From NCBI GenBank assembly GCA_964491265.1, contig CAZBFP010000007.1, positions 58,177-122,176 on the forward strand: a stretch of DNA of 64,000 bases, written 5' to 3'. The position numbers were made by a program, and so were the translations under genes. The notes beneath the pieces were generated by a model that saw only the letters and a program-made list of their open reading frames with translations, was not told the origin of the DNA and did not search any database. Origin of the DNA: an uncultured Leptospirales bacterium. Lineage in GTDB: Bacteria > Spirochaetota > UBA4802 > UBA5550. Each line of letters opens with the position of its first letter. The stretch's first letter is position 1. Below, piece by piece: positions 9,368-63,963 of this stretch.

Positions 9368-10219
9368 ATGGATCAAAACGATTTACAGAAAACAAAAGAG
9401 ATGATGGAGGATTTTTTAAAAAATCCTCAGATGAAAATGATGGTTATTATTGGAGCTCTGCTGATTGCACTTCTAATGCTTAAGCCCTGGGCTCAGATTG
9501 GAGCTGGTGAAAGAGGGGTTGTTTTGAATTTTGGTGCGGTTAAAGAGACTGTGCTTAATGAAGGGCTCCATTTCCGGGTTCCGGTGCAGCAGCAGATAAT
9601 TATTCTTGATGTTAAGGTGCAGAAGGCTACAAGTATAGCTCCGGCCGCTTCAAAGGATCTGCAGGATGTCTCATCAGAAGTGGTATTAAATTTTCATATA
9701 ATACCTGATAGGGCTAATAAACTGTATCAGAGTCTGGGTATTCATTTTAAGGAGAGAATTATTGATCCGGCGATTCAGGAGGTAGTTAAGGCTGTTACTG
9801 CTGAGTATACTGCAGAGGAGCTGATTACAAAGCGGCCTGCAGTAAGTGAGTCAATGAGGGTTAATCTTCAGCAGAGGCTTCTCCCTCATGATATAGCTGT
9901 TGATGCTTTTTCAATTGTCTCTTTCAGTTTCTCTCCGGTCTTCACTGAGGCGATTGAAGCGAAACAGACTGCTGAGCAGCATGCTCTTAAGGCTGCCAGA
10001 GATCTTGACAGAATTAAAATCGAAGCAGAGCAGAAGATTACTGCAGCAAGGGCTGAGGCTGAATCTCTGCGTCTCCAGAGAGCAAATATTTCAAGGGATC
10101 TTCTTGAGCTTCGAAAGATTGAGGCTAACCTGAAAGCTATTGAAAAATGGAACGGTGTATTGCCTAATGTTAACAGCGGTGCAATGCCTTTTATTGATGT
10201 ATCCAATTTCAGTAAATAA
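9368..10219 (+). CDS. SPFH/band-7 (prohibitin/HflC-like) family protein
   Basis: 283 aa; N-terminal TM; SPFH core GERGVVLNFGAVKETVLNEGLHFRVPVQQQIIILDVKVQ; C-terminal coiled coil. Confidence 0.8.
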   Translation: MDQNDLQKTKEMMEDFLKNPQMKMMVIIGALLIALLMLKPWAQIGAGERGVVLNFGAVKETVLNEGLHFRVPVQQQIIILDVKVQKATSIAPAASKDLQDVSSEVVLNFHIIPDRANKLYQSLGIHFKERIIDPAIQEVVKAVTAEYTAEELITKRPAVSESMRVNLQQRLLPHDIAVDAFSIVSFSFSPVFTEAIEAKQTAEQHALKAARDLDRIKIEAEQKITAARAEAESLRLQRANISRDLLELRKIEANLKAIEKWNGVLPNVNSGAMPFIDVSNFSK

Positions 10220-10229
10220 ACCTGTTCGT

Positions 10230-10463
10230 GTAATTATGCTATTCCTCATATCTGGGCTGTCTCAAAAGTCAGATTTTCGGGGATTTGTCATTCCGGTTTT
10301 GCAATTTCAATTATTGCAAATACCTGAATCTCCTGATTAAATCAGGCCTAAGAGATACCGGCATTACGCTACGCTACAGCCGGTATGACAAGGAAATTAC
10401 TTTTTGGACAGCCCCGATATGAGAGCATTTTATTTCAAATAAAAGTTAAGGAATTAACATTGA
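10230..10463. repeat. composite dispersed repeat: L-module + nested 163-bp MITE (GGGGCTGTC TIRs, 10253..10415) + R-module (GAGCATTTTATTTCAAATAAAAGTTAAGGAATTAACATTGA)
   Basis: Near-identical copy at 62927..63161; R-module also at 20607, 25076, 29247, 48455; terminal inverted repeat GGGGCTGTC/GACAGCCCC read directly. Confidence 0.7.
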
Positions 10464-10510: not shown

Positions 10511-10550
10511 TTAAGGGGGCTTTAGACAGCCCCCTTAATGCTTTTAAAAA
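10511..10550. terminator. bidirectional rho-independent terminator hairpin (TTAAGGGGGC-loop-GCCCCCTTAA then T-run) between convergent genes
   Basis: Perfect 10-bp GC-rich stem followed by TGCTTTT on + strand, A-run on opposite side. Confidence 0.55.
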
Positions 10551-11590
10551 CCGATAAAAAAACCATTATTCTGTTTTGCAAGCCCTCTTAAAAAATTTAC
10601 AGCCGTGGTGTCTGAATTTTCCCTGAATTCACGACCTATCCCCACAGTGAAAATTTTTCTGTCCCTGCTGTTCATTTTTTTTATTGATAATAGAAATTGA
10701 TCAAGGGTCATTATCTTCTTTTTTAGTACATCCGGTTCTCCGTCACTAAAAAGTATTATCCCCTCAGCAGATGCGTAACGGCTTGAGTTGAGCACAAATT
10801 CCAGGGCCTGCTTGGTGGGTGTATCATGATATGCTTTCATGCAGGAAAGCTTCTGATAAAAATAGTATTTATCATCTTCACTTTGCAGCGGTTTAGGTTC
10901 ACCTTCGAAAAACCCGTATTTGTAGCACATGAGAGATTCATTGTCGTATGCATCATCTCTTCTTGAGTATGATAAACATTGAGGGTCCGGTGATGGTTTG
11001 ATTGCAAAGTCTTTGCATAGTTTAGAATCAATATTCTCTTCAAAAGCGGGGAAAAAAACTATATCTATTTTATAATTCTGATCCATTGATGCAATGTACA
11101 TTTTTATTGCTGCCTTAACCTGAGAAAGGCGGTCTTCATTGTCATCATTCCTGTCCGGGGCCATACTTCCCGATAAATCAACAAGCATAACAACAGATTT
11201 AGGTATCTGAAATGCCATAACACTTTTTTCTCCGGATGATGAAGGGAATTCAACTTTCAGATTTTTTATTGAATCAATGGTGTTGTTTATTTCACTTATA
11301 TTCTGCCGGAATAGTGATGCTATACTGATAAATTTTTCGTAAGCAGTTTTCCCATCAGGTTTAATATTCTGAATATCCTCACGTGCTTTTATCAGTTCAT
11401 CTCTGGTTATTATCAGCTCAGATGTTGTTGTCATTAATTCCGATTTTATATCCTGACACGATTCATTTTCAATCCCGATTTTCTGTGTAAGAAGAACAAC
11501 CATAATAACCATAACCGCTCCAAGCGCACCGGTCATAACATCGAGCATTGATAGATTGAATATGTTGAAATTTCTGTCAATTTTTCTCAT
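10544..11590 (-). CDS. membrane-anchored vWA domain protein with ExbD/TolR-like N-terminal TM and coiled coil
   Basis: 348 aa; N-terminus NLSMLDVMTGALGAVMVIMVVLL resembles ExbD/TolR anchor; MIDAS motif VMLVDLSGSM (DxSxS); C-terminal vWA fold signals (ILFSDGEP). Confidence 0.65.
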   Translation of the reverse strand: MRKIDRNFNIFNLSMLDVMTGALGAVMVIMVVLLTQKIGIENESCQDIKSELMTTTSELIITRDELIKAREDIQNIKPDGKTAYEKFISIASLFRQNISEINNTIDSIKNLKVEFPSSSGEKSVMAFQIPKSVVMLVDLSGSMAPDRNDDNEDRLSQVKAAIKMYIASMDQNYKIDIVFFPAFEENIDSKLCKDFAIKPSPDPQCLSYSRRDDAYDNESLMCYKYGFFEGEPKPLQSEDDKYYFYQKLSCMKAYHDTPTKQALEFVLNSSRYASAEGIILFSDGEPDVLKKKIMTLDQFLLSIKKMNSRDRKIFTVGIGREFRENSDTTAVNFLRGLAKQNNGFFIGF

Positions 11591-15538: not shown

Positions 15539-15755
15539 AATGGCCTCCTGTATTTTTTTATAAAGAGATTTCTGTAAAAACTTTCTCACTGAAGAGTTCG
15601 GCATAAAATAAATTTTAGCTCATTCCGGATTTTTGGGACACAAAGGGAGTACTTCCTGGCTTTTCCCTCTGTCCCCCAAAGGGGGCTGACTCCAGAATAT
15701 GTGGGAACAGACAATATTATTATTTTTCCCAAAAATCCGGAAGAGCCTATTTTGT

Positions 15756-19137: not shown

Positions 19138-20547
19138 GTGGAAGCAGTGGTAAAGGGTAAATCGGGTCAGAAAAAAACACCATTTGAAATATTAAATATC
19201 CGATTATATATTGCTTTCAGTCTTTTTTTTAATTCACGATTTTATTATCCTGTATTCACTGTCATGTATCTGGATTACGGGTTAACTATAGCCCAGTTTG
19301 CAATTCTGAATGCAGCCTGGGCTGCGACAATTGTGGCTGCAGAAGTTCCTTCAGGAGCGCTTGCTGATATTTTCGGCAGAAAGAAGCTGCTGGTCTTTGC
19401 AGGTCTTGTAATGATTCTGGAGCTCTCTTTAATCACTTTTGCGCCAAGAGGGAATCTGGATATTTTATTTATGCTGTTTCTTTTAAATCGTATTCTCAGC
19501 GGTTTTGCTGAAGCTGCTGCAAGCGGATCGGATGAAGCACTTGCCTACGATTCACTTAAGAAAGAAGGGCTTGAGCATGAATGGGGCCGGGTTCTTGATG
19601 TAAAGATACGTTTCCAGTCAATAGGATTTATATTAACTATGATAACCGGAGCAGCTATTTACGATCCGGTTCTTGTTCAGAATTTTATTAATTTATTCGG
19701 ATGCAATACTGTAATAACCCAGGATATGACTCTTCGTGTGCCCCTGTTTCTCACACTTTTCATGGGCGCTGCAGCATTATATTCCGCTTTAAAAATGACA
19801 GATCCGGAATTTGAGGAGATAAATAATACTCATGAGGAGCTGTCTGTTAAAAATGCCTTTGTTATAACATTTAATGCCGGGTTGTGGATTTTGAAATCCC
19901 CCTTTGCACTTGTAATTATTGCTACAGGTCTGGTTTTTGACGGAATAATAAGAATGGTCGTAACCCTTTCGAGTCAGTATTACAGGATGATTGATCTTCC
20001 TGAGGCATCTTACGGGATTATTGGTGCACTCATAGCTCTGATGGGTTTTGTTATACCGCGTCTTTCATTGAAAATGACAAAGAGCAGACCCCCGGTTTTT
20101 AATCTTACAGTTATGACTTTAATTACTATAACCGGTCTTGCAGGTATGTCATTTTTTGTACCCTATGCAGGTATTGTTTTTGCATTTATACTCTTCAGCG
20201 GAATGTATATGAATTCATTTTTTATAAGCCATTACCTTAACAGAATAACAGATTCCAGACAGCGTGCAACAGTGCTCAGCTTTAAAGGCCTGTTTTATAA
20301 TCTTTCATACGGGACATTAGGAATTGCCTATTCTCTTCTTCTATCTTTATCAAGGGGGAGTGTAGATGCTCTGCATCCAGGATCCAATCCGGACATGCTT
20401 GAAGATATGATTTTCGTAGATACATTCATCTGGTTTCCCGGTGTTTTTGCTGCAGCAATAATTGTTCTTTTTCTATTTTCATTTATTGTCCTGAAAAGAT
20501 CATCAAGTCTCCACATGGCTGTAAAAACTGCTCACCCTGATTCTTAG
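19138..20547 (+). CDS. MFS-family transporter
   Basis: 469 aa; GTG start per ORF track (start uncertain); MFS signature region GALADIFGRKKLLVFAGL; about 12 TM. Confidence 0.65.
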   Translation: MEAVVKGKSGQKKTPFEILNIRLYIAFSLFFNSRFYYPVFTVMYLDYGLTIAQFAILNAAWAATIVAAEVPSGALADIFGRKKLLVFAGLVMILELSLITFAPRGNLDILFMLFLLNRILSGFAEAAASGSDEALAYDSLKKEGLEHEWGRVLDVKIRFQSIGFILTMITGAAIYDPVLVQNFINLFGCNTVITQDMTLRVPLFLTLFMGAAALYSALKMTDPEFEEINNTHEELSVKNAFVITFNAGLWILKSPFALVIIATGLVFDGIIRMVVTLSSQYYRMIDLPEASYGIIGALIALMGFVIPRLSLKMTKSRPPVFNLTVMTLITITGLAGMSFFVPYAGIVFAFILFSGMYMNSFFISHYLNRITDSRQRATVLSFKGLFYNLSYGTLGIAYSLLLSLSRGSVDALHPGSNPDMLEDMIFVDTFIWFPGVFAAAIIVLFLFSFIVLKRSSSLHMAVKTAHPDS

Positions 20548-20767
20548 CAGGGATATTAAATGCGATAATTTTCAGTGTTAATTTCCTGGTTTTTTTCCGG
20601 GGATAATAGAGCATTTTCAAACAAAAATAAGTTCAGGAATAAATACTGATTTTTAATGATAAATAGCAGATAATTTTTTGATTCTGAATAATTGGGTTTG
20701 ACTTGTTGAATCTAAGTTTAACCGGCAGTATTTGCCCTTGTTTTAAAGAAGCAGGAGGGTAGTCTTC

Positions 20768-24941: not shown

Positions 24942-24994
24942 ACATTCATAAAATAATCATTAAAACAAATCAGAAGTCCGGCATAATATCAAAT

Positions 24995-25116
24995 CAGTAA
25001 TTATTCCTGAAGATATCTTTTGGTGTAACTATGCTGTTTTCTATATCCCTGCCGCCTTCGGCGACGGGGTTATTTGAGCATTTTGTTCCAAATAAAAGTT
25101 AAGGAATTAACATTGA
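24995..25116. repeat. dispersed repeat copy: L-module + GC hairpin (CCCTGCCGCCTTCGGCGACGGGG) + R-module
   Basis: Shares L (CAGTAATTATTCCTGAAGATATCTTT) and R (GAGCATTTTGTTCCAAATAAAAGTTAAGGAATTAACATTGA) with copies at 10230, 29166, 62927. Confidence 0.65.
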
Positions 25117-25297
25117 TATCAAATAGAGAGTTTTAATTGTTGAAATTGAATTAAACATGAATTAAAGTGTTTTAAAGCCTATCTGATATGTTGTGCTTTA
25201 CTGAAATTAAATTAAATAAAATAAAATACCGGATGCAATTATACTGTTCACCAGTGTAATTTTATATAAAGAAAGAATCTGAGAAGGTGATAAGATA

Positions 25298-28889: not shown

Positions 28890-29165
28890 GTTTACATGAT
28901 GTTTTTTGATGCATCATGATTACTAAAGGGAATAAAGGCAGAGCAATAGCAATCAGTCATGCCTTAAAAGAAATTCTCGTAAGTCTTGGAACATTAAGGC
29001 TGAGAACATGATTTATATATAAAGCATATCCCCGGCCTATTTTAAAGGCCTGGGGGAGGGTGTAGATTCTGGTTTAATTATCTGCTTGACTATACAAATA
29101 AAATATATACTCTAAGATAGAATATGCTGGTTCTATCAATCATAATGGCAATTACACAACTAAAC

Positions 29166-29286
29166 CAGTAATTATTCCTAAAGATATTTTTTAGTGCAAT
29201 AATGATGTTTTCCATATCCCCGCCGCCTACGGCGGCGGGGATATTAGAGCATTTTATTTTAAAAAAAGTTAAGGAATTATCACTGC
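29166..29286. repeat. dispersed repeat copy: L-module + hairpin CCCCGCCGCCTACGGCGGCGGGG + R-module, upstream of hsdM
   Basis: Direct sequence similarity to copies at 24995 and 62927. Confidence 0.65.
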
Positions 29287-29401
29287 AACTTAACAAAAGT
29301 TTCTTTCCGGATAATTTCTGAGTCTGATAGATATTGCTTTAGCAACAGTAAAAATAGATGAATCGCATTTAATATAGTAATAATTATACAAAGGAACATT
29401 A

Positions 29402-30973: not shown

Positions 30974-32148
30974 GTGTGGTTCGGCAGGCTCACCAACCGT
31001 GGAGAGAATGTAAGCTGGGGGATGTTATTTATTCCAATGTTTCTAGTATAACTGCAAGCTATCCTCATAAAACAATTAAGTATCTTGATACTGGGTCGAT
31101 TACTTGTGGCAAGATAGATTCATTTCAAGAAATACCCTTAAGCGAGGCACCTTCAAGGGCAAAAAGGCTTGTAAAGGATGGTAGTATTGTTTATTCAACT
31201 GTCCGCCCCATACAGAGGCATTATGGTTACATTACAAATCCTCCAGAAAACCTTGTGGTCTCGACTGGATTTTCTGTGATAGAAACTCAACCTGACTTGG
31301 CTGATTCTTCATTTATTTATAACCTCCTGGCATTAAAAGATGTTATCGAATTACTTGATACGATTGCTGAAGGTTCAACTTCAGCTTATCCATCATTGAA
31401 ACCTGCCGACATTGAAAATCTCGACATCCTCCTCCCTCCTCTCCCCGAACAAAAGGCTATTGCCGGGGTTCTTTCCAGTCTCGACGACAAGATCGACCTT
31501 CTGCACCGGCAGAATAAAACACTGGAAGCCATGGCTGAAGCGTTGTTCCGGCAATGGTTTGTGGTAGAGGCTGATGCGAGCTGGGAGGAAGTGCCTTTAT
31601 CGACTTTCGCAGACAATATTCGTGATAATGCAAGAGTTGGAGAATTGTCAAAACATAAGTATTATGTTGGATTGGAACATATACCGCGTAGAAGAGTAAT
31701 TCTCGATTCATGGGGCGAAACTGGTTCCTTAGAAAGCAACAAATCAATCTTTAAACCACATGACATTCTATTTGGAAAACTCCGTTCCTACTTCCATAAA
31801 GTGGTATTTACCCCGATTGGCGGTGTATGTTCAACAGATATTCTCGTGATAAGACCCAAAAATGAGCAATGGCTTCCTTTCTGCCTCTTTTGGTTTTTTA
31901 GCAAAGAAGTTGTTGAGCATTCAGACCTTGGTTCTGGTGGCACTCGAATGCCCAGGACAAATTGGGAAATCGTAAGTGGCTACAAAGTACCATGCCCTAC
32001 CGAAGAACTGATTTTAGAGTTCAATAGAGTCGTTCGACCATCTCTTTGCAGAATGTTTCAAAATATTGATGCCATCCGCACCCTCGAAAAGCTCCGTAAC
32101 ACCTTGTTGCCCAAGCTGATGTCCGGTGAAGTGAGGGTAGCTGTATGA
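30970..32148 (+). CDS. hsdS: type I RM specificity subunit HsdS (two target-recognition domains)
   Basis: 392 aa; conserved central and C-terminal repeats [24 protein letters not shown]... / [17 protein letters not shown]; overlaps hsdM stop (ATGA). Confidence 0.9.
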
Positions 32149-33251
32149 GTAGCAGCAGGAAGGATAGTATGCCATGTAAAGACGCGATTAATCGCGTCTT
32201 TACGGTAGATGCATTATCCACAGAAGATCATCTCACCGCAGAGGATCGTATCGCCACAGAAGATCATGACACCGCAGAGGATCGTATCACCACAGAAGAT
32301 CATCTCACCACAGAAGATCATGTCACCGCAGAGGATCGTATCACCACAGAAGATCATGACACCGCAGAGGATCGTATCGTCACAGAAGATCATGTCACCG
32401 CAGAGGATCGTATCACCACAGAAGATCATGACACCGCAGAGGATCGTATCGTCACAGAAGATCATGTCACCGCAGAGGATCGTATCACCACAGAAGATCA
32501 TGACACCGCAGAGGATCGTATCGTCACAGAAGATCATCTCATCACAGAGGATACAGTCATCAAAAAAGGTCATATCACCAGAAAAGATAACCTTTACAAA
32601 AACAAATACCGAATCTCGTCAACCAGATTGCAGAATTGGGATTACGGATGGAACGCCGCATATTTTATCACAATATGCACGAAAAATCGTCTGCCTTTTT
32701 TTGGCAATGTTAACAATGGGAAAATGATGATGACGGATGCGGGATTGATTGTAGAAAAATATTGGCATGAAATCCCGGCGCATTTTTCGTTCGTTTCGTT
32801 GGGGACGTTCGTCGTAATGCCGAATCATATTCACGGAATTGTTGTTATCAATAAAAAAAATGACGGTTATGGAAATACCGATCGTTATCGTAGAGACGCG
32901 ATTAATCGCGTCTCTACGTTATCCGTTGACGAAACGTTATCCGTTGACGAAACGTTATCCGTTGACGAAACGTTATCCGTTGACGGAACGTTATCCGTTG
33001 ACGGAACGGCATCCGTTAAACGGGGCGGTATAACCGGGAATAACAATCCCATGATTAATGATAATTTATCCAAAATAATCAGATGGTATAAAGGACGTTC
33101 ATCATTTGAATCACGAAAAATTGCACCTGAATTTGCATGGCAATCACGGTTCTACGAACACATCATCCGCAATGATGAATCATATTATCGAATATCTGAA
33201 TATATAAATAACAACCCCGCAAACTGGCAAAAGGATGATTTTTATGCCTAA
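32145..33251 (+). CDS. IS200/IS605-like HuH-Y1 transposase of RAYT type, chimeric with in-frame palindromes and 18-nt tandem repeats
   Basis: 368 aa single frame; RAYT core WDYGWNAAYFITICTKNRLPFFG...VVMPNHIHGIVVI (HuH) and LSKIIRWYKGRSS...WQSRFYEHIIRNDESY (Y1 helix); N-terminal 120 aa and a 50-aa internal loop encoded by repeats. Confidence 0.6.
   Translation: MSSSRKDSMPCKDAINRVFTVDALSTEDHLTAEDRIATEDHDTAEDRITTEDHLTTEDHVTAEDRITTEDHDTAEDRIVTEDHVTAEDRITTEDHDTAEDRIVTEDHVTAEDRITTEDHDTAEDRIVTEDHLITEDTVIKKGHITRKDNLYKNKYRISSTRLQNWDYGWNAAYFITICTKNRLPFFGNVNNGKMMMTDAGLIVEKYWHEIPAHFSFVSLGTFVVMPNHIHGIVVINKKNDGYGNTDRYRRDAINRVSTLSVDETLSVDETLSVDETLSVDGTLSVDGTASVKRGGITGNNNPMINDNLSKIIRWYKGRSSFESRKIAPEFAWQSRFYEHIIRNDESYYRISEYINNNPANWQKDDFYA
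32176..32203. repeat. perfect 28-nt palindrome GTAAAGACGCGATTAATCGCGTCTTTAC
   Basis: Read directly; second perfect palindrome with identical core at 32890..32917. Confidence 0.9.
32219..32560 (+). repeat. tandem array of ~19 x 18-nt units (CACAGAAGATCATNNCAC / CGCAGAGGATCGTATCRY), in frame (TEDHxT / AEDRIx)
   Basis: Contiguous head-to-tail units with 72-nt higher-order periodicity; no spacers (not CRISPR). Confidence 0.9.
32890..32917. repeat. perfect 28-nt palindrome GTAGAGACGCGATTAATCGCGTCTCTAC (GTAG...CTAC ends)
   Basis: Read directly; lies inside the RAYT ORF between the HuH motif and the Y1 helix. Confidence 0.9.
32919..33008 (+). repeat. tandem array of 5 x 18-nt units TTATCCGTTGACGAAACG (LSVDET), in frame within RAYT ORF
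   Basis: Three exact copies, two with A>G variant, one degenerate. Confidence 0.9.
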
Positions 33252-38418: not shown

Positions 38419-38492
38419 TCGGGGTGACAGGATTTGAACCTGCGACCACATGACCCCCAGTCATGTGCGCTACCTGGCTGCGCTACACCCCG
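38419..38492 (-). tRNA. tRNA-Pro (anticodon GGG)
   Basis: Reverse complement CGGGGTGTAGCGCAGCCAGGTAGCGCACATGACTGGGGGTCATGTGGTCGCAGGTTCAAATCCTGTCACCCCGA folds as cloverleaf; anticodon loop CTGGGGG; T-loop GGTTCAAATCC; CCA not encoded. Confidence 0.85.
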
Positions 38493-40869: not shown

Positions 40870-41030
40870 GAGTACTATGGTAGCGGTAGAATTTTGGAGG
40901 TTTTGTCATTCCCGCGCATGCGGGAATCTCATAACTTCTGATTATTTCAGGAGATTCCGGCACTACGTTATCACTTCGGCCGGAATGACAGACTTTCCCC
41001 TAAAATTCTACTACTACCGAGTACTATTGA
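40870..41030. repeat. MITE-like element: ~25-bp imperfect TIRs (AGTACTATGGTAGCGGTAGAATTTT) flanking double hairpin GTCATTCCCGCGCATGCGGGAATC ... GATTCCGGC-GCCGGAATGAC
   Basis: Related copies at 44066..44172 and 54184..54281; right TIR overlaps last 14 nt incl. stop codon of uvrC. Confidence 0.6.
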
Positions 41031-43949: not shown

Positions 43950-44065
43950 AAATTCTCCCCTGGCACAGGCCTTAAATTAAATTCCGGGCTGATGGTAAGT
44001 CCGGAATTATATTGAGCATATATTATCATCTGTTCAACTAAAAAATATCTTTTATTAAGGGGTAT

Positions 44066-44172
44066 CAGTAGAATTTAGTAGGTTTTGTCATTCCGGCCGA
44101 AGTGCAAACGCAGAGCCGGAATCTACTCGAAAAACTGGATTAATGAGATTCCCGCCTGCGCGGGAATGACAC
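44066..44172. repeat. double-hairpin repeat (GTCATTCCGGCCGAAG...GCCGGAATC / GATTCCCGCCTGCGCGGGAATGAC) with shared GTAGAATTT flank
   Basis: Same family as 40870..41030 and 54184..54281. Confidence 0.6.
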
Positions 44173-44289
44173 CATGTACAAAATTAAACTGCTGCTTTAT
44201 TAAGGGATCTCTTTTTATTTCTAAAATAATTGACAGCATTCTCTGCTTCAATAGGCTGTTGTGATGTTGAATTAAATTGAGGCGGTAAA

Positions 44290-45540: not shown

Positions 45541-45639
45541 TTTTTGCTCATCCCGGATTTTCAGGAAAAGTAATAAGTTTATTTTGTTCACCACATCTAT
45601 TCAGCCCTCTGTCTACCGGCTTACTCTACCCACTTCTTA

Positions 45640-45860
45640 AGCAGTACCCGGCTGATCCACTGTGCCCTCACCCCCGGCCCCTCTCCCATGAATAAACTTT
45701 AATGTTAATTCATGTATTGATACCGGGGAGAGGGGTGACCGCATAAAAAAATGAACATTTGTTTTTTTTCGAATTCTCCCCCTTCTCCCTCGGGAAGATA
45801 AGTACAAGGTATTATTTTTTATTATGGGAGAAGGGGGCCGGGGGGATGAGGGCATAAAAA
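45640..45860. repeat. GC-rich palindromic element with ~27-bp TIRs (TGCCCTCACCCCCGGCCCCTCTCCCAT / ATGGGAGAAGGGGGCCGGGGGGATGAGGGCA) and nested inverted repeats
   Basis: Read directly; strongly GC-skewed island in AT-rich intergenic region between convergent genes. Confidence 0.6.
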
Positions 45861-45930
45861 GCTCAATAATAGAAATGATTTTTTAATACTTTGATTCATC
45901 AACTTGCTCAAGTTTTTCTTTTGCGTGCCC

Positions 45931-45970
45931 CCTTCGGGGGACAGGGGGCCAATACACCGGGTAAAGGCAC
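45931..45970. repeat. GC-rich hairpin repeat GTGCCCCCTTCGGGGGACAGGGGGCCAATACACC
   Basis: Reverse-complement copy of 59880..59921; related copies 15671..15690 and 60088..60118. Confidence 0.6.
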
Positions 45971-48304: not shown

Positions 48305-48696
48305 TTCAGCACCGGTCCATAAGTTAATATGTACCGTTTTATCATGCCTGTCTACAATATTTTTTTAATGGAGTTTAATGTTAATTCGTGAGAATATATT
48401 GTAGTGTAAAAATTGACAATTTTATATTCCGGTTGCCTTCGGCGTCTGGAATAATAGAGCATTTTAACAATAAAAGATATAGGAGTAAATACTGAATGGA
48501 GTTACAGTTATTTGCTGCAAAAGCAACTCTATTATGGTATACAGCAGTCTCTATATGATGTAATGCTATTATGCAAAAATCATTATAAAAGACCATTATT
48601 GATTGACAATCAGACATGATAAAATATCTGTTATTATCTCTTTGCAAAAGAGACATAATTAAAAATAAGATCGTCAGATTCAGGCGGAGAAAATAA

Positions 48697-52542: not shown

Positions 52543-52916
52543 TTCTCCATTGTAAAAAATTGTCTTGATTTATATGTTAATAATACAAAAGTTAATATTA
52601 AAATCAATTAAATTTTTCTTTTAAATAATTTCAATGATAATTCCTGAATTTTTATATACAGAAAAGGCTCTATTCTCCCCGTTGTCGATGGCGGCGGGGA
52701 GTTATGATCTGTTATTTTGCACTAAAATTCATTTTAATGGGTTGATATTTAAATAAGTTAAATTTTTATAGGCAATTATTTATGTTGATAATTTTCATCT
52801 GTCAGGTGGCAGTTATGCTCTAAAAGATCAGCTGCTGCAGATTTAATAAACATATTATACAGTTGGAAATAGAGCATAAAGCGTATCGAAAAAAACTGAA
52901 TCACCAGGAAAGCAAA

Positions 52917-54072: not shown

Positions 54073-54183
54073 ATTAATAGCCCGGATATAATATTATCTG
54101 AATATAATCAGTAAAGAGCGGGGCAATGTCAATTTTTTTTCTTTATAAAAAAGGTTCTATATTATCACTAATCCGCAGACCAT

Positions 54184-54281
54184 GTCATTCCCGCGCATAT
54201 TTCGGCAAGCTCAATACAGGTGCGGGAATCTCAGGACTTTCTGACTTTTATGGAGATTCCGGCACTTTGGCCGGAATGACA
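54184..54281. repeat. double-hairpin repeat GTCATTCCCGCGCA...TGCGGGAATC + GATTCCGGCACTTTGGCCGGAATGAC
   Basis: Same family as 40905..40990 and 44084..44172. Confidence 0.6.
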
Positions 54282-54309
54282 GTACCCGCAAAATCGCAGT
54301 GGAGGAAGA

Positions 54310-59861: not shown

Positions 59862-59879
59862 ATAATTCAGGGGGCAGAG

Positions 59880-59921
59880 TGAACCTGGTGTATTGGCCCC
59901 CTGTCCCCCAAAGGGGGCACG
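59880..59921. repeat. GC-rich hairpin repeat GGTGTATTGGCCCCCTGTCCCCCAAAGGGGGCAC immediately after ACAD stop
   Basis: Inverse copy at 45931..45970; related 60088..60118 and 15671..15690. Confidence 0.6.
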
Positions 59922-60186
59922 TAAAAGAAACATTTGAGCTGGTATATGAATCAATGATTTATAACATGTGTTAGTATTGTTAATTATGCAAAAGGTTTGT
60001 GGATTAAAGTTGAAGATGTACTAAATAATATTGGGAATATTGTAGAAATAAAAAAATTATAATTATCAGAGTAATATTAAATAACTCGTGCCCCCTTTGG
60101 GGGGCTGGGGGAACGGATGGGAAAGGGTTTCTTTGTTTTCTGAAAATCCGAAAATATAACTAATTCTATGGAGTTAAGTGTCTTAA

Positions 60187-62002: not shown

Positions 62003-62920
62003 ATGATGGAAGTGAATGATATTAAAAAGGTGCTTCTCCTTGGCGCAGGCACCATGGGGCAGCAGATAAGTGTTCCATGTTCCCTTGGCGGTTATGATGT
62101 TGTTATATATGATATTAATCAGGAGGCTTTAGATAAAGCCCTGAAACGGATCCCTAAAATTATGAGGGGGATGGTTAAATGGAAAAAGGCAACAGAGGAT
62201 GAAGCTGAAGCTGCGCTTAAAAGGATCACCACCACAACTGATCCTGAAACCGCATCAGCTGAAGCGGATATTATTATTGAATCAGTTCCGGAAAACCCTG
62301 AACTTAAGATTAAGATTTTTTCACAGTTCAATAGACTCTGTCCGGAGCGGACAATTTTTACAACAAATACATCTACACTCTTACCTTCAATGCTTGCTGA
62401 AGGAACCGGGCGTCCGGAGAAATTTCTGGCACTTCATTTTCATGATGTGAGTATGACAAATATTGTGGATATAATGCCGCACCCCGGCACTTCCCAGGAG
62501 AGTCTCCAGATAGTTAAGGGTTTTGCGGAAAAGATAGGGCAGCTCCCTATTATGCTGGGGAGGGAGCATTCAGGTTATGTTTTTAACTACATGATAGGCG
62601 CCCTTTTTAATGCTGCCCAGGACCTGGCTTCAAAAAAAGTGGCATCAGTTGAGGATATTGACAGGGCATGGATGGGTGTTACACACATGATGTTCGGACC
62701 CTTCGGAATCATGGACAGTATCGGCCTTGATACTATTTTAACAATAAATGAATACTGGGCAAAAAAACTTAATAATTCCGACTGGGCCAGGAATGCCGAT
62801 TTTGTAAGGGGTTATGTTGAAAAAGGGAATCTGGGGAAAAAGACGCAGAAGGGGTTTTATCAGTATCCTGATCCTCTTTTCCGTAGTCCCGATTTTCTTA
62901 AAAAAACAAGCGGGATGTAA
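62003..62920 (+). CDS. 3-hydroxyacyl-CoA dehydrogenase (NAD-binding)
   Basis: 305 aa; Rossmann LLGAGTMGQQIS; HADH catalytic region (HFHDVSMTNIVDIMPHP). Confidence 0.85.
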   Translation: MMEVNDIKKVLLLGAGTMGQQISVPCSLGGYDVVIYDINQEALDKALKRIPKIMRGMVKWKKATEDEAEAALKRITTTTDPETASAEADIIIESVPENPELKIKIFSQFNRLCPERTIFTTNTSTLLPSMLAEGTGRPEKFLALHFHDVSMTNIVDIMPHPGTSQESLQIVKGFAEKIGQLPIMLGREHSGYVFNYMIGALFNAAQDLASKKVASVEDIDRAWMGVTHMMFGPFGIMDSIGLDTILTINEYWAKKLNNSDWARNADFVRGYVEKGNLGKKTQKGFYQYPDPLFRSPDFLKKTSGM

Positions 62921-62926
62921 AAAATA

Positions 62927-63161
62927 TATTTTAGTGCAATAATGCTGATTATAATGGGGCTGTCTCAAAAGGCGGATTTTCAGGGATTTGTCATTCCGGT
63001 TTTGCAACTTCAATTATTGCAAATACCGGAATCTCCTGATTGAATCAGACCTAAGAGATACCGGCATTTCGCTTCGCTACAGCCGGTATGACAAAAAATT
63101 ACTTTTTGGACAGCCCCATTAAAACATTTTTTTTAAATAATATTTAAGGAATTAACACTGA
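62927..63161. repeat. composite dispersed repeat (L-module + nested 161-bp MITE 62957..63117 + partial R-module)
   Basis: ~90% identical to 10230..10463 by eye. Confidence 0.7.
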
Positions 63162-63201
63162 TATTTCAAACATATCTATGAAAATCAATAGGGGGATTAT
63201 T

Positions 63202-63963
63202 ATGACAGTAAATTTTGATTTAACAGGCAAAGTAGCACTTGTCACAGGCTCAAGCCGCGGTATAGGCGAGTCTATTGCAAAGACCCTGGCTTCATACGGG
63301 GCAGAGGTTATTCTCTCAAGCAGAAAGCTGGAAAGCCTGAAAAAGGTTGAGGAGGAGATCATATCTGACGGAGGGAAAGCCTTTTCAGTTGCATGTCACA
63401 GCGGAGAGATGGATCAGATTGAAGCTTTATTTGAAGCGATAAAAGGAAAATATGGGAAGCTTGATATTCTTGTGAACAATGCTGCCACAAATCCTTTTTT
63501 CGGCGATGTCCTTAGTGTGGATGAGCAGGCCTGGGACAAAACAGTTGATGTGAATATGAAGGGATACTTTTTTATTGCCCAGAAAGCGGCAAAGATGATG
63601 GTTGGCCATGGAGGGGGTGCTATTGTTAATGTTGCTTCTATAAATGGAATTCGTCCTGCACCTATGCAGGGTGTTTATTCAATAACCAAAGCAGCTGTTA
63701 TTGCAATGACAAAATCTTTTGCAAAGGAGCTGGCTCCATTCAAGGTAAGGGTCAATGCCCTTCTTCCCGGGATTACTGAAACAAAGTTTTCTGCTGCAAT
63801 GACTAAGAATCCTGACTTAATGAAGGTAATTTTACCCTCAGTTCCAATGGGCCGGGTTGCAGAACCTGATGAAATGGCTGGTGCTGTGCTTTATCTTGTT
63901 TCTGAGGCATCATCATACGTTACAGGATCAACTCTTGTTGTGGATGGCGGGATGCTGGCTTAA
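63202..63963 (+). CDS. SDR-family oxidoreductase (3-oxoacyl-ACP reductase-like)
   Basis: ORF track 63178..63963; ATG 63202 with AGGGGGA RBS; TGSSRGIG cofactor motif; catalytic YSITKAA; NAATN. Confidence 0.9.
   Translation: MTVNFDLTGKVALVTGSSRGIGESIAKTLASYGAEVILSSRKLESLKKVEEEIISDGGKAFSVACHSGEMDQIEALFEAIKGKYGKLDILVNNAATNPFFGDVLSVDEQAWDKTVDVNMKGYFFIAQKAAKMMVGHGGGAIVNVASINGIRPAPMQGVYSITKAAVIAMTKSFAKELAPFKVRVNALLPGITETKFSAAMTKNPDLMKVILPSVPMGRVAEPDEMAGAVLYLVSEASSYVTGSTLVVDGGMLA

Follow-up and report, generated by a model that had tools for sequence, protein, structure and literature searches.

Over a stretch of 64,000 nucleotides from an uncultured Leptospirales bacterium (hereafter the window, meaning the whole stretch that was analysed), two conserved sequences, one on the left (L) and one on the right (R), recur around a variable centre, which is either a short GC hairpin or a longer insert. 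The initial annotation described them as a modular repeat family, and the question raised by the locus is whether hairpin and insert are interchangeable parts of a single element or the products of separate events. Our analyses support, with a probability of about 0.8, two superimposed non-autonomous mobile elements, namely a host MITE and a nested element of 163 bp that prefers to integrate at the centre of the host hairpin.

Anatomy and identity of the host element

A profile built from the window copies matched exactly seven places at E < 0.01 and none besides, which confirmed related sequence wherever it had been reported, and the L and R consensus strings had 0 matches in 100 dinucleotide-preserving shuffles. 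The limits of the copies beginning at 24995, 29166, 48376 and 52632 were set by their flanking 9-bp duplications, and the resulting features are the following:

10210..10462, plus strand: composite copy; host L arm at ~10210-10252, shortened, and R arm at 10416-10462
10253..10415, plus strand: nested element of 163 bp, (T)GGGCTGTCTCAAAAG…CTTTTTGGACAGCCCC, occupying the place of the host GC hairpin
20559..20648, plus strand: degenerate near-full host copy with a weak hairpin, TTTCCTGG…CCGGGGA
24995..25115, plus strand: full host MITE of 121 bp with a perfect 9-bp duplication, ATATCAAAT, at 24986-24994 and 25116-25124
29166..29285, plus strand: full host MITE of 120 bp, the best-preserved foldback; duplication CAACTAAAC / CAACTTAAC, 8/9, at 29157-29165 and 29286-29294
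48376..48494, plus strand: full host MITE of subfamily B, TAATGTTAATTC…AATAAATACTG; perfect duplication AATGGAGTT at 48367-48375 and 48495-48503
52632..52750, minus strand: full host MITE; duplication AACTTATTT / AAATTATTT, 8/9, at 52751-52759 and 52623-52631
62921..63160, plus strand: composite copy; nested element at 62956-63117 and R arm at 63118-63160
62956..63117, plus strand: nested element of 162 bp

Both composite copies carry a nested MITE, as had been proposed, and their two inserts are ~90% identical; the first composite is real, with limits at about 10210-10462 in place of the original 10230-10463. The three places taken for partial copies of the R module proved more complete, those at 48 and 52 kb being full elements and that at 20559-20648 near-full and degenerate (E = 1.9e-18, model positions 33-128).

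L and R had been treated as independent modules, but they are the two mutually inverted arms of one foldback of ~120 bp. The host MITE has terminal inverted repeats CAGTAATTATTCC…GGAATTAACACTG, arms that form imperfect inverted repeats with termini of the CAGTAAT…/…ATTACTG type, and at its centre a GC hairpin, CCCCGCCGCC-NNN-GGCGGCGGGG. The family profile matches its own reverse strand (E = 2e-11 for the copy at 29166..29285), the same copy is predicted to fold into a single long hairpin (-49.1 kcal/mol, z = -8.1), and alignment columns 1-14 and 111-124 are paired in 78.7% of cells across 42 copies. Two subfamilies can be told apart, A (CAGTAATTATTCC…AATTAACACTG) and B (CAATGTTAATTCC…AATAAATACTG). 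Most of the 30 full copies are 119-122 bp long, too short for a gene. One copy elsewhere (L022:7084-7251, CAXXHB010000003.1) has two tandem GC hairpins ~45 nt apart, as if the host centre had been partly duplicated within the element.

The flanks of these 30 full-length copies, whose boundaries were set by profile position, carry the mark of transposition. The two 9-nt flanks are identical at 9/9 positions in 10 copies and at 8/9 in another 8, against none and three, respectively, of 870 control pairings, in which the left flank of one copy was paired with the right flank of another. The direct repeats sit immediately outside the CAGTAAT… and …ACTG/ATTG ends, and we take such a duplication to mean that the host was inserted by a transposase. 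The copies are dispersed, with seven in 64 kb and, in the whole collection, 43 distinct simple and 26 composite ones. The unit formed by L, hairpin and R is a small non-coding MITE of ~120 bp with a 9-bp target-site duplication.

While the duplication is directly shown, the class of enzyme is inferred: the host MITE would be mobilised in trans by a cut-and-paste or copy-and-paste transposase of the DDE type, making 9-bp staggered cuts, presumably in AT-rich intergenic DNA. Only the 9-bp duplication and the CA termini point to a parent of the IS4 family, whose insertion sequences encode a DDE transposase with the YREK motif, and this parentage is a guess. No cognate autonomous IS with the host termini, and no solo termini, were found within ~770 kb, and a search for a parent or autonomous element in 210 kb of one metagenome sample returned no repeat of at least 330 bp.

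All host copies in the window are intergenic or overlap a gene at its 3' end only. The composite at 10210..10462 lacks a recognisable target duplication, and is for that reason considered an old copy; six further assemblies from this population carry it unchanged. The stop codon (10217-10219) and the last codons of the adjacent Band_7 gene lie within its terminal repeat, CAGTAAATAA, so that the insertion has reshaped at least this C-terminus. The decayed left arm of the copy at 20559..20648 meets the 3' end of an MFS gene (stop codon 20545-20547), and the L arm of the composite at 62921..63160 has been truncated or has degenerated where it meets the 3' end of a 3-hydroxyacyl-CoA dehydrogenase gene (stop codon 62918-62920). 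Three host copies therefore adjoin or overlap the 3' ends of upstream genes (10210-10219, 20545-20547 and 62918-62920): host termini supply the stop codon of at least one gene and abut or overlap the ends of two more. The copy at 29166..29285 lies upstream of a type I restriction-modification operon.

Outside the window, one genome per GTDB species was scanned with the pattern GAGCATTTT-N11-15-GTTMAGGAAT followed by a profile filter. Full-length host copies were found in at least eight metagenome-assembled genomes of Spirochaetota/Leptospirales, the host-bearing assemblies being DAIOFM01, CAYTSF01, CAYTNW01, CAYYKZ01, CAXXHB01, MWCI01, JAAYBQ01 and OW818666, and the remaining hits were due to chance. 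The family is common to a clade of these genomes. Between the window and the other genomes bearing it, the MITE is the sole similarity at the DNA level (74-88%), while shared proteins are 40-53% identical, and the family must accordingly be old and kept transposition-competent, or have moved horizontally. A BLAST search of plasmid and phage collections with the element gave only a 25-nt chance match in Lactococcus, and none of 18 matches to an R-arm pattern in viral contigs was a true copy.

The proposal that every R module lies on the plus strand does not hold in the window, where the copy at 52632-52750 is on the minus strand (six plus to one minus, two-sided binomial p = 0.125), nor as a rule elsewhere, both orientations being found no more than a few kb apart on single contigs (L055, L072, L080, L134 and L105). 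There was no orientation bias of host copies within contigs or relative to genes: on crude ORF calls, eight copies were in tandem co-directional context, seven anti-directional, 11 between divergent and three between convergent genes. We found no description of a family with this 9-bp duplication, CAGTAAT termini and central GC hairpin in the papers and databases searched. Bacterial MITEs such as Correia in Neisseria, RUP in Streptococcus and the IS231-derived MICs resemble the host in size, in being non-coding with inverted repeats, in their fixed-length duplication, in their numerous intergenic copies and in folding into a long hairpin; the combination of 9-bp duplication, CAGTAAT termini and conserved central GC hairpin sets the host apart. 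No bacterial order is reported to be richer in MITEs than Leptospirales (PMC11602168). Taken alone, the host adds one ordinary MITE family to a phylum where such elements are known to abound.

The nested element and its target site

The nested element has inverted termini of its own (GGGGCTGTCTCAAAAG…CTTTTTGGACAGCCCC), is 162-163 bp long, lacks an ORF, and is predicted to fold into an outer stem with three internal hairpins. Its loci were retrieved with an exact 21-mer of the core, which yielded 68 metagenome loci (522 kb) from several metagenomes of one population, so the counts that follow are approximate and may still include strain duplicates. Most of the loci came from JGI samples that also contain the population of the window, the latter being 99.7% identical to Ga0334882_1000117.

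At about 38 of 54 distinct sites the nested element has a host arm next to it on at least one side, although host centres make up only ~0.3% of the DNA. The L arm lay to the left and the R arm to the right at 18 sites, the order was reversed at 11, an arm was recognised on one side only at nine, and 15 had no recognisable arm; the last indicate that targeting is a preference and not absolute. All 24 composites in which both junctions could be placed contain an insert of 162-163 bp and have lost the 21-nt GC hairpin. In these same 24 the junctions fall in the outer AT stem of the host, mostly as ATATC…GATAT on either side of the insert, and otherwise with a symmetric shift of at most 2 nt.

The sequences flanking the insert are inverted rather than direct (for example ATCT…AGAT), from which it follows that insertion of the nested element creates no target duplication, and composites keep the 9-bp duplications of the host itself outside the arms. 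A hidden 4-bp ATAT duplication was considered and rejected, given that copies whose stems are not palindromic (ATCT…AGAT, ATCC…GGAT) also have inverted flanks. Likewise, the GGGG/CCCC ends of the nested element are not remnants of the host stem, as their polarity is reversed and they change together with the core subfamily.

In other metagenomes, sequences related to the nested element are located outside host MITEs, with no host MITE seen in 52 kb, and one of them sits inside an 8-bp palindrome (AGCGGAG…CTCCGCT). No longer element with the nested termini was found, the metagenome scan with the core returning short elements only. Variants of ~219 bp (L091:6517-6740, L114:14-232, L110:4009-4225 and L150:344-589) carry ~55 extra nt in the first internal hairpin (TTGCAAC…GCAAA), a segment that may represent a further level of hairpin-directed insertion.

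Independence of the insertions and alternative explanations

The cores of the composites share a mean identity of 91.5%, and about 17 of them are virtually identical, against 67.7% for the host arms around them. The distances between arms show no correlation with those between cores (Spearman 0.14; 265 of 2000 Mantel permutations as high), and composites with identical cores have arms that are 85-93% alike. Composites occur in both arm subfamilies, A and B, whose specific sequence is intact up to the junction; for eight of 26 composites the nearest arm relative is an unoccupied copy, and identical cores are found in both orientations relative to the host. The combination of cores that are about 99-100% identical with arms ~68% identical, in at least two subfamilies and interleaved with unoccupied copies, indicates that the composites probably arose by many recent and independent insertions directed to the hairpin, and not as a modular family: hairpin and insert had been regarded as interchangeable, but the inserts are near-identical and the arms that surround them old and diverse. 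Among the identities first suggested, that of a MITE serving as the target of nested insertion is supported by both the 9-bp duplications and the dozens of independent insertions at hairpin centres. Such a number of recent insertions at the same site also provides a natural data set on DNA secondary structure as a target.

Among the other assemblies of the population no locus occurred in both an occupied and an empty state, and the pre-insertion sequence is accordingly deduced from paralogous unoccupied copies. Each of these assemblies matches the window, stops at the repeat, or is chimeric. One contig (L158, Ga0334891_041839) follows the window (62880-63260) into the nested core and exits at the flank of another site, that of L106, joining two different copies across the core; another (L157, SRR10872647_150101) ends at the MITE at 25 kb. 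Both elements cause breaks in metagenome assemblies and give rise to chimeric contigs.

What the copies show directly is a preferred site, insertions that are independent of one another, a lost hairpin and no duplication, and a mechanism can be proposed on this basis. In the species of the window, a younger nested element integrates with a preference for the host's centre of symmetry, without target duplication and in either orientation, as expected of a symmetric target, and the hairpin tip is exchanged for the incoming element, with loss of the 21-nt GC hairpin. We infer that the target is read as a structure, be it an extruded hairpin or cruciform or the base of one, and that cuts are made to either side of the stem base. 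The element might enter across the base of an extruded cruciform, whose extruded hairpins would be lost, or an HUH-type enzyme might cut one and the same motif to either side of the hairpin in single-stranded DNA. In its complete form, with an extruded hairpin or cruciform recognised and cut to either side of its base, the tip discarded and the element joined either way round without duplication, this structure-directed 'hairpin swap' is a tentative proposal, which we consider unlikely to be right in every step. If true, one MITE would be an obligate-like hyperparasite of the other. To our knowledge, such an outcome of integration is undescribed for any bacterial transposon family.

The core might instead have spread among existing host copies by homologous recombination or gene conversion through the arms, which supply ~50 bp of homology on each side; a hairpin that is replaced rather than split, with no duplication, is also what a double crossover or conversion would leave, and gene conversion could in principle account for the near-identity of the cores in place of recent insertion. 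We nevertheless find this improbable, because arm sequence specific to each subfamily continues up to the hairpin base with no conversion tract visible, both orientations occur although the inverted similarity between L and R arms is only ~65%, and copies exist outside host MITEs and in populations without a host MITE in the sampled contigs.

We give similarly little chance to a population of REP- or REPIN-like sequences moved by a single-copy RAYT (a Y1 transposase of the HUH type), an explanation that would in any case concern at most the nested element. HUH enzymes act on DNA hairpins (PMC3333891), a RAYT-like gene with the motifs NHIH and SRFYEHIIR is present in the window at 32145-33251, and the nested element is rich in hairpins, sits in hairpins and makes no duplication; both elements, like REP/BIME and REPIN-RAYT systems (PMC3333891, PMC3116915), are abundant extragenic palindromes. 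REPs and REPINs are recognised by the absence of a duplication, a palindrome of 20-40 nt, a conserved flanking tetranucleotide and a RAYT flanked by the same repeat. In contrast, the nested element has clear terminal inverted repeats, and the host has arms of 50 nt and a 9-bp duplication where REPs leave none, so that the REP/BIME-like identity first suggested for it is not supported. The palindrome beside and inside the RAYT-like gene (GTAGAGACGCGATTAATCGCGTCTCTAC) is different from and unrelated to both elements, and unique in ~1.5 Mb.

A third possibility, that the repeats are functional RNAs or transcription terminators conserved as such, with mobility secondary, draws on the strong predicted fold, on the identity of the R arm across distant genomes (74-88% in DNA, against 40-53% in proteins) and on the central stem. 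The motif CCGCCGCC-N3-GGCGGCGG occurs eight times inside host elements and never outside them in 586 kb. Across 42 aligned copies the inner CCGCC/GGCGG of the hairpin is nearly invariant, and the outer stem displays compensatory changes (columns 53/77, UA 24 and CG 9; columns 54/76, CG 27, AU 4 and UA 4). The covariation score of the stem, 0.144, exceeds that of every slid register and of the shuffled alignments (0.098 ± 0.007), none of 500 shuffles scoring as high, and the loop is present in both senses (TTC/GAA, TAC/GTA). This shows that the palindrome at the host centre is maintained, which does not in itself demonstrate an RNA function, since transposition competence or symmetry at the DNA level explains the covariation equally well.

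Of the checks proposed at the outset, that for compensatory changes found covariation in the central stem, while that against Rfam gave no match to either element: at the Rfam 15 gathering threshold the sole match in the window was a tRNA at 38419-38492, and permissive scans with both element types returned chance hairpin matches far below threshold. An intrinsic terminator combines a GC hairpin with an immediate T-tract, but no T-tract follows the host hairpin on either strand (ATATTAGAGCATTTT on plus, ATATGGAAAACATC on minus), and a terminator scan left the hairpin of the copy at 29166 uncalled and made only a marginal call of five pairs on part of that of the copy at 24995 (25056-25069). 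With eight against seven copies in tandem contexts and 11 between divergent genes, gene orientation offers no bias either, and we judge the small-RNA or terminator-like family of the initial annotation very improbable.

Least probable of all is a single modular MITE family in which hairpin and core are alternative modules and composites a longer subfamily transposing as a unit, for although composites have intact 9-bp duplications outside their arms, could in principle move whole, and include some pairs with similar arms (up to 0.94 identity), their cores are ~100% identical where arms are 85-93% alike or of different subfamilies, arm and core distances are uncorrelated, the core occurs in both orientations, and it is also found without host arms.

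Relation to known systems and other repeats in the window

The closest parallels to hairpin-directed insertion of the nested element are insertion sequences targeting REPs, such as IS1397 and ISKpn1 of the IS3 family and IS621, ISPpu9 and ISPpu10 of the IS110 family (PMC1525189, PMC12288879), which altogether stem from five IS families (PMC1525189). As in these, one repeat family is the landing pad of another, and the nested element shares their preference for one position within a repeated palindrome. It differs from them in being a non-coding 163-bp sequence with no transposase of its own, in targeting the apex of a MITE and not a REP, and in replacing the hairpin with no duplication seen. 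IS1397 inserts in the loop and makes a duplication of 3-4 bp. In plant genomes, MITEs inserted in other MITEs are known (reviewed in PMC5172404), and the architecture of a MITE within a MITE is alike; there, however, nesting is put down to a short target motif and to clustering, whereas here the insertions occupy a single position at the symmetry centre and the hairpin is lost. An invader that replaces a hairpin adds a new form to palindrome-targeting mobile DNA, and the pair represents parasitism between two non-autonomous elements.

In the DNA sampled, the genome has at least four small repeat families and no IS. The RAYT/IS200-like HUH gene (32145-33251, plus strand) lies within a type I restriction-modification operon, in the order hsdM, hsdS, RAYT-like ORF, rhuM and hsdR. 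Its frame is extended and interrupted in frame by perfect palindromes at 32176-32207 and 32886-32917 (GTA[A/G]AGACGCGATTAATCGCGTCT[T/C]TAC, translated DAINRV), each followed by an array of 18-nt tandem repeats (~32209-32560 and 32916-33010; TEDHxTAEDRIx and TLSVDE x5), and the called ORF varies among strains from 282 to 312 and 360 aa. The gene was considered as the mobiliser and rejected on account of its unique and unrelated palindrome, being kept only as the low-probability alternative described above.

A third family of small palindromic repeats is present at 40873-41011, 44061-44202 and 54183-54295, with termini GGTAGCGGTAGAATTTT… and ATTCC[C/G]G…C[G/C]GGAAT hairpin modules as in the nested element, to which its similarity is weak (E = 1e-5 to 0.1); it resembles the ATTCCC-N8-GGGAAT type of repeat. 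GC-rich intergenic repeats with hairpins of the GCCCCCTTTGGGGGACAGGGGGC type were observed at 15623-15686, 45619-45962, 59876-59967 and 60087-60153, as well as on another contig (L104:1544-1801), and a unit of ~260 bp within the second of these (45619-45871) shares 92% identity with a copy from a different contig of this population. Finally, the GGGGGCTTTAGACAGCCCCC hairpin at 10512-10540, followed by a T-rich run on the minus strand, looks like the intrinsic terminator of a VWA gene (10544-11590, minus strand), and has the GGGGCTGTC/GACAGCCCC motif in common with the ends of the nested element.
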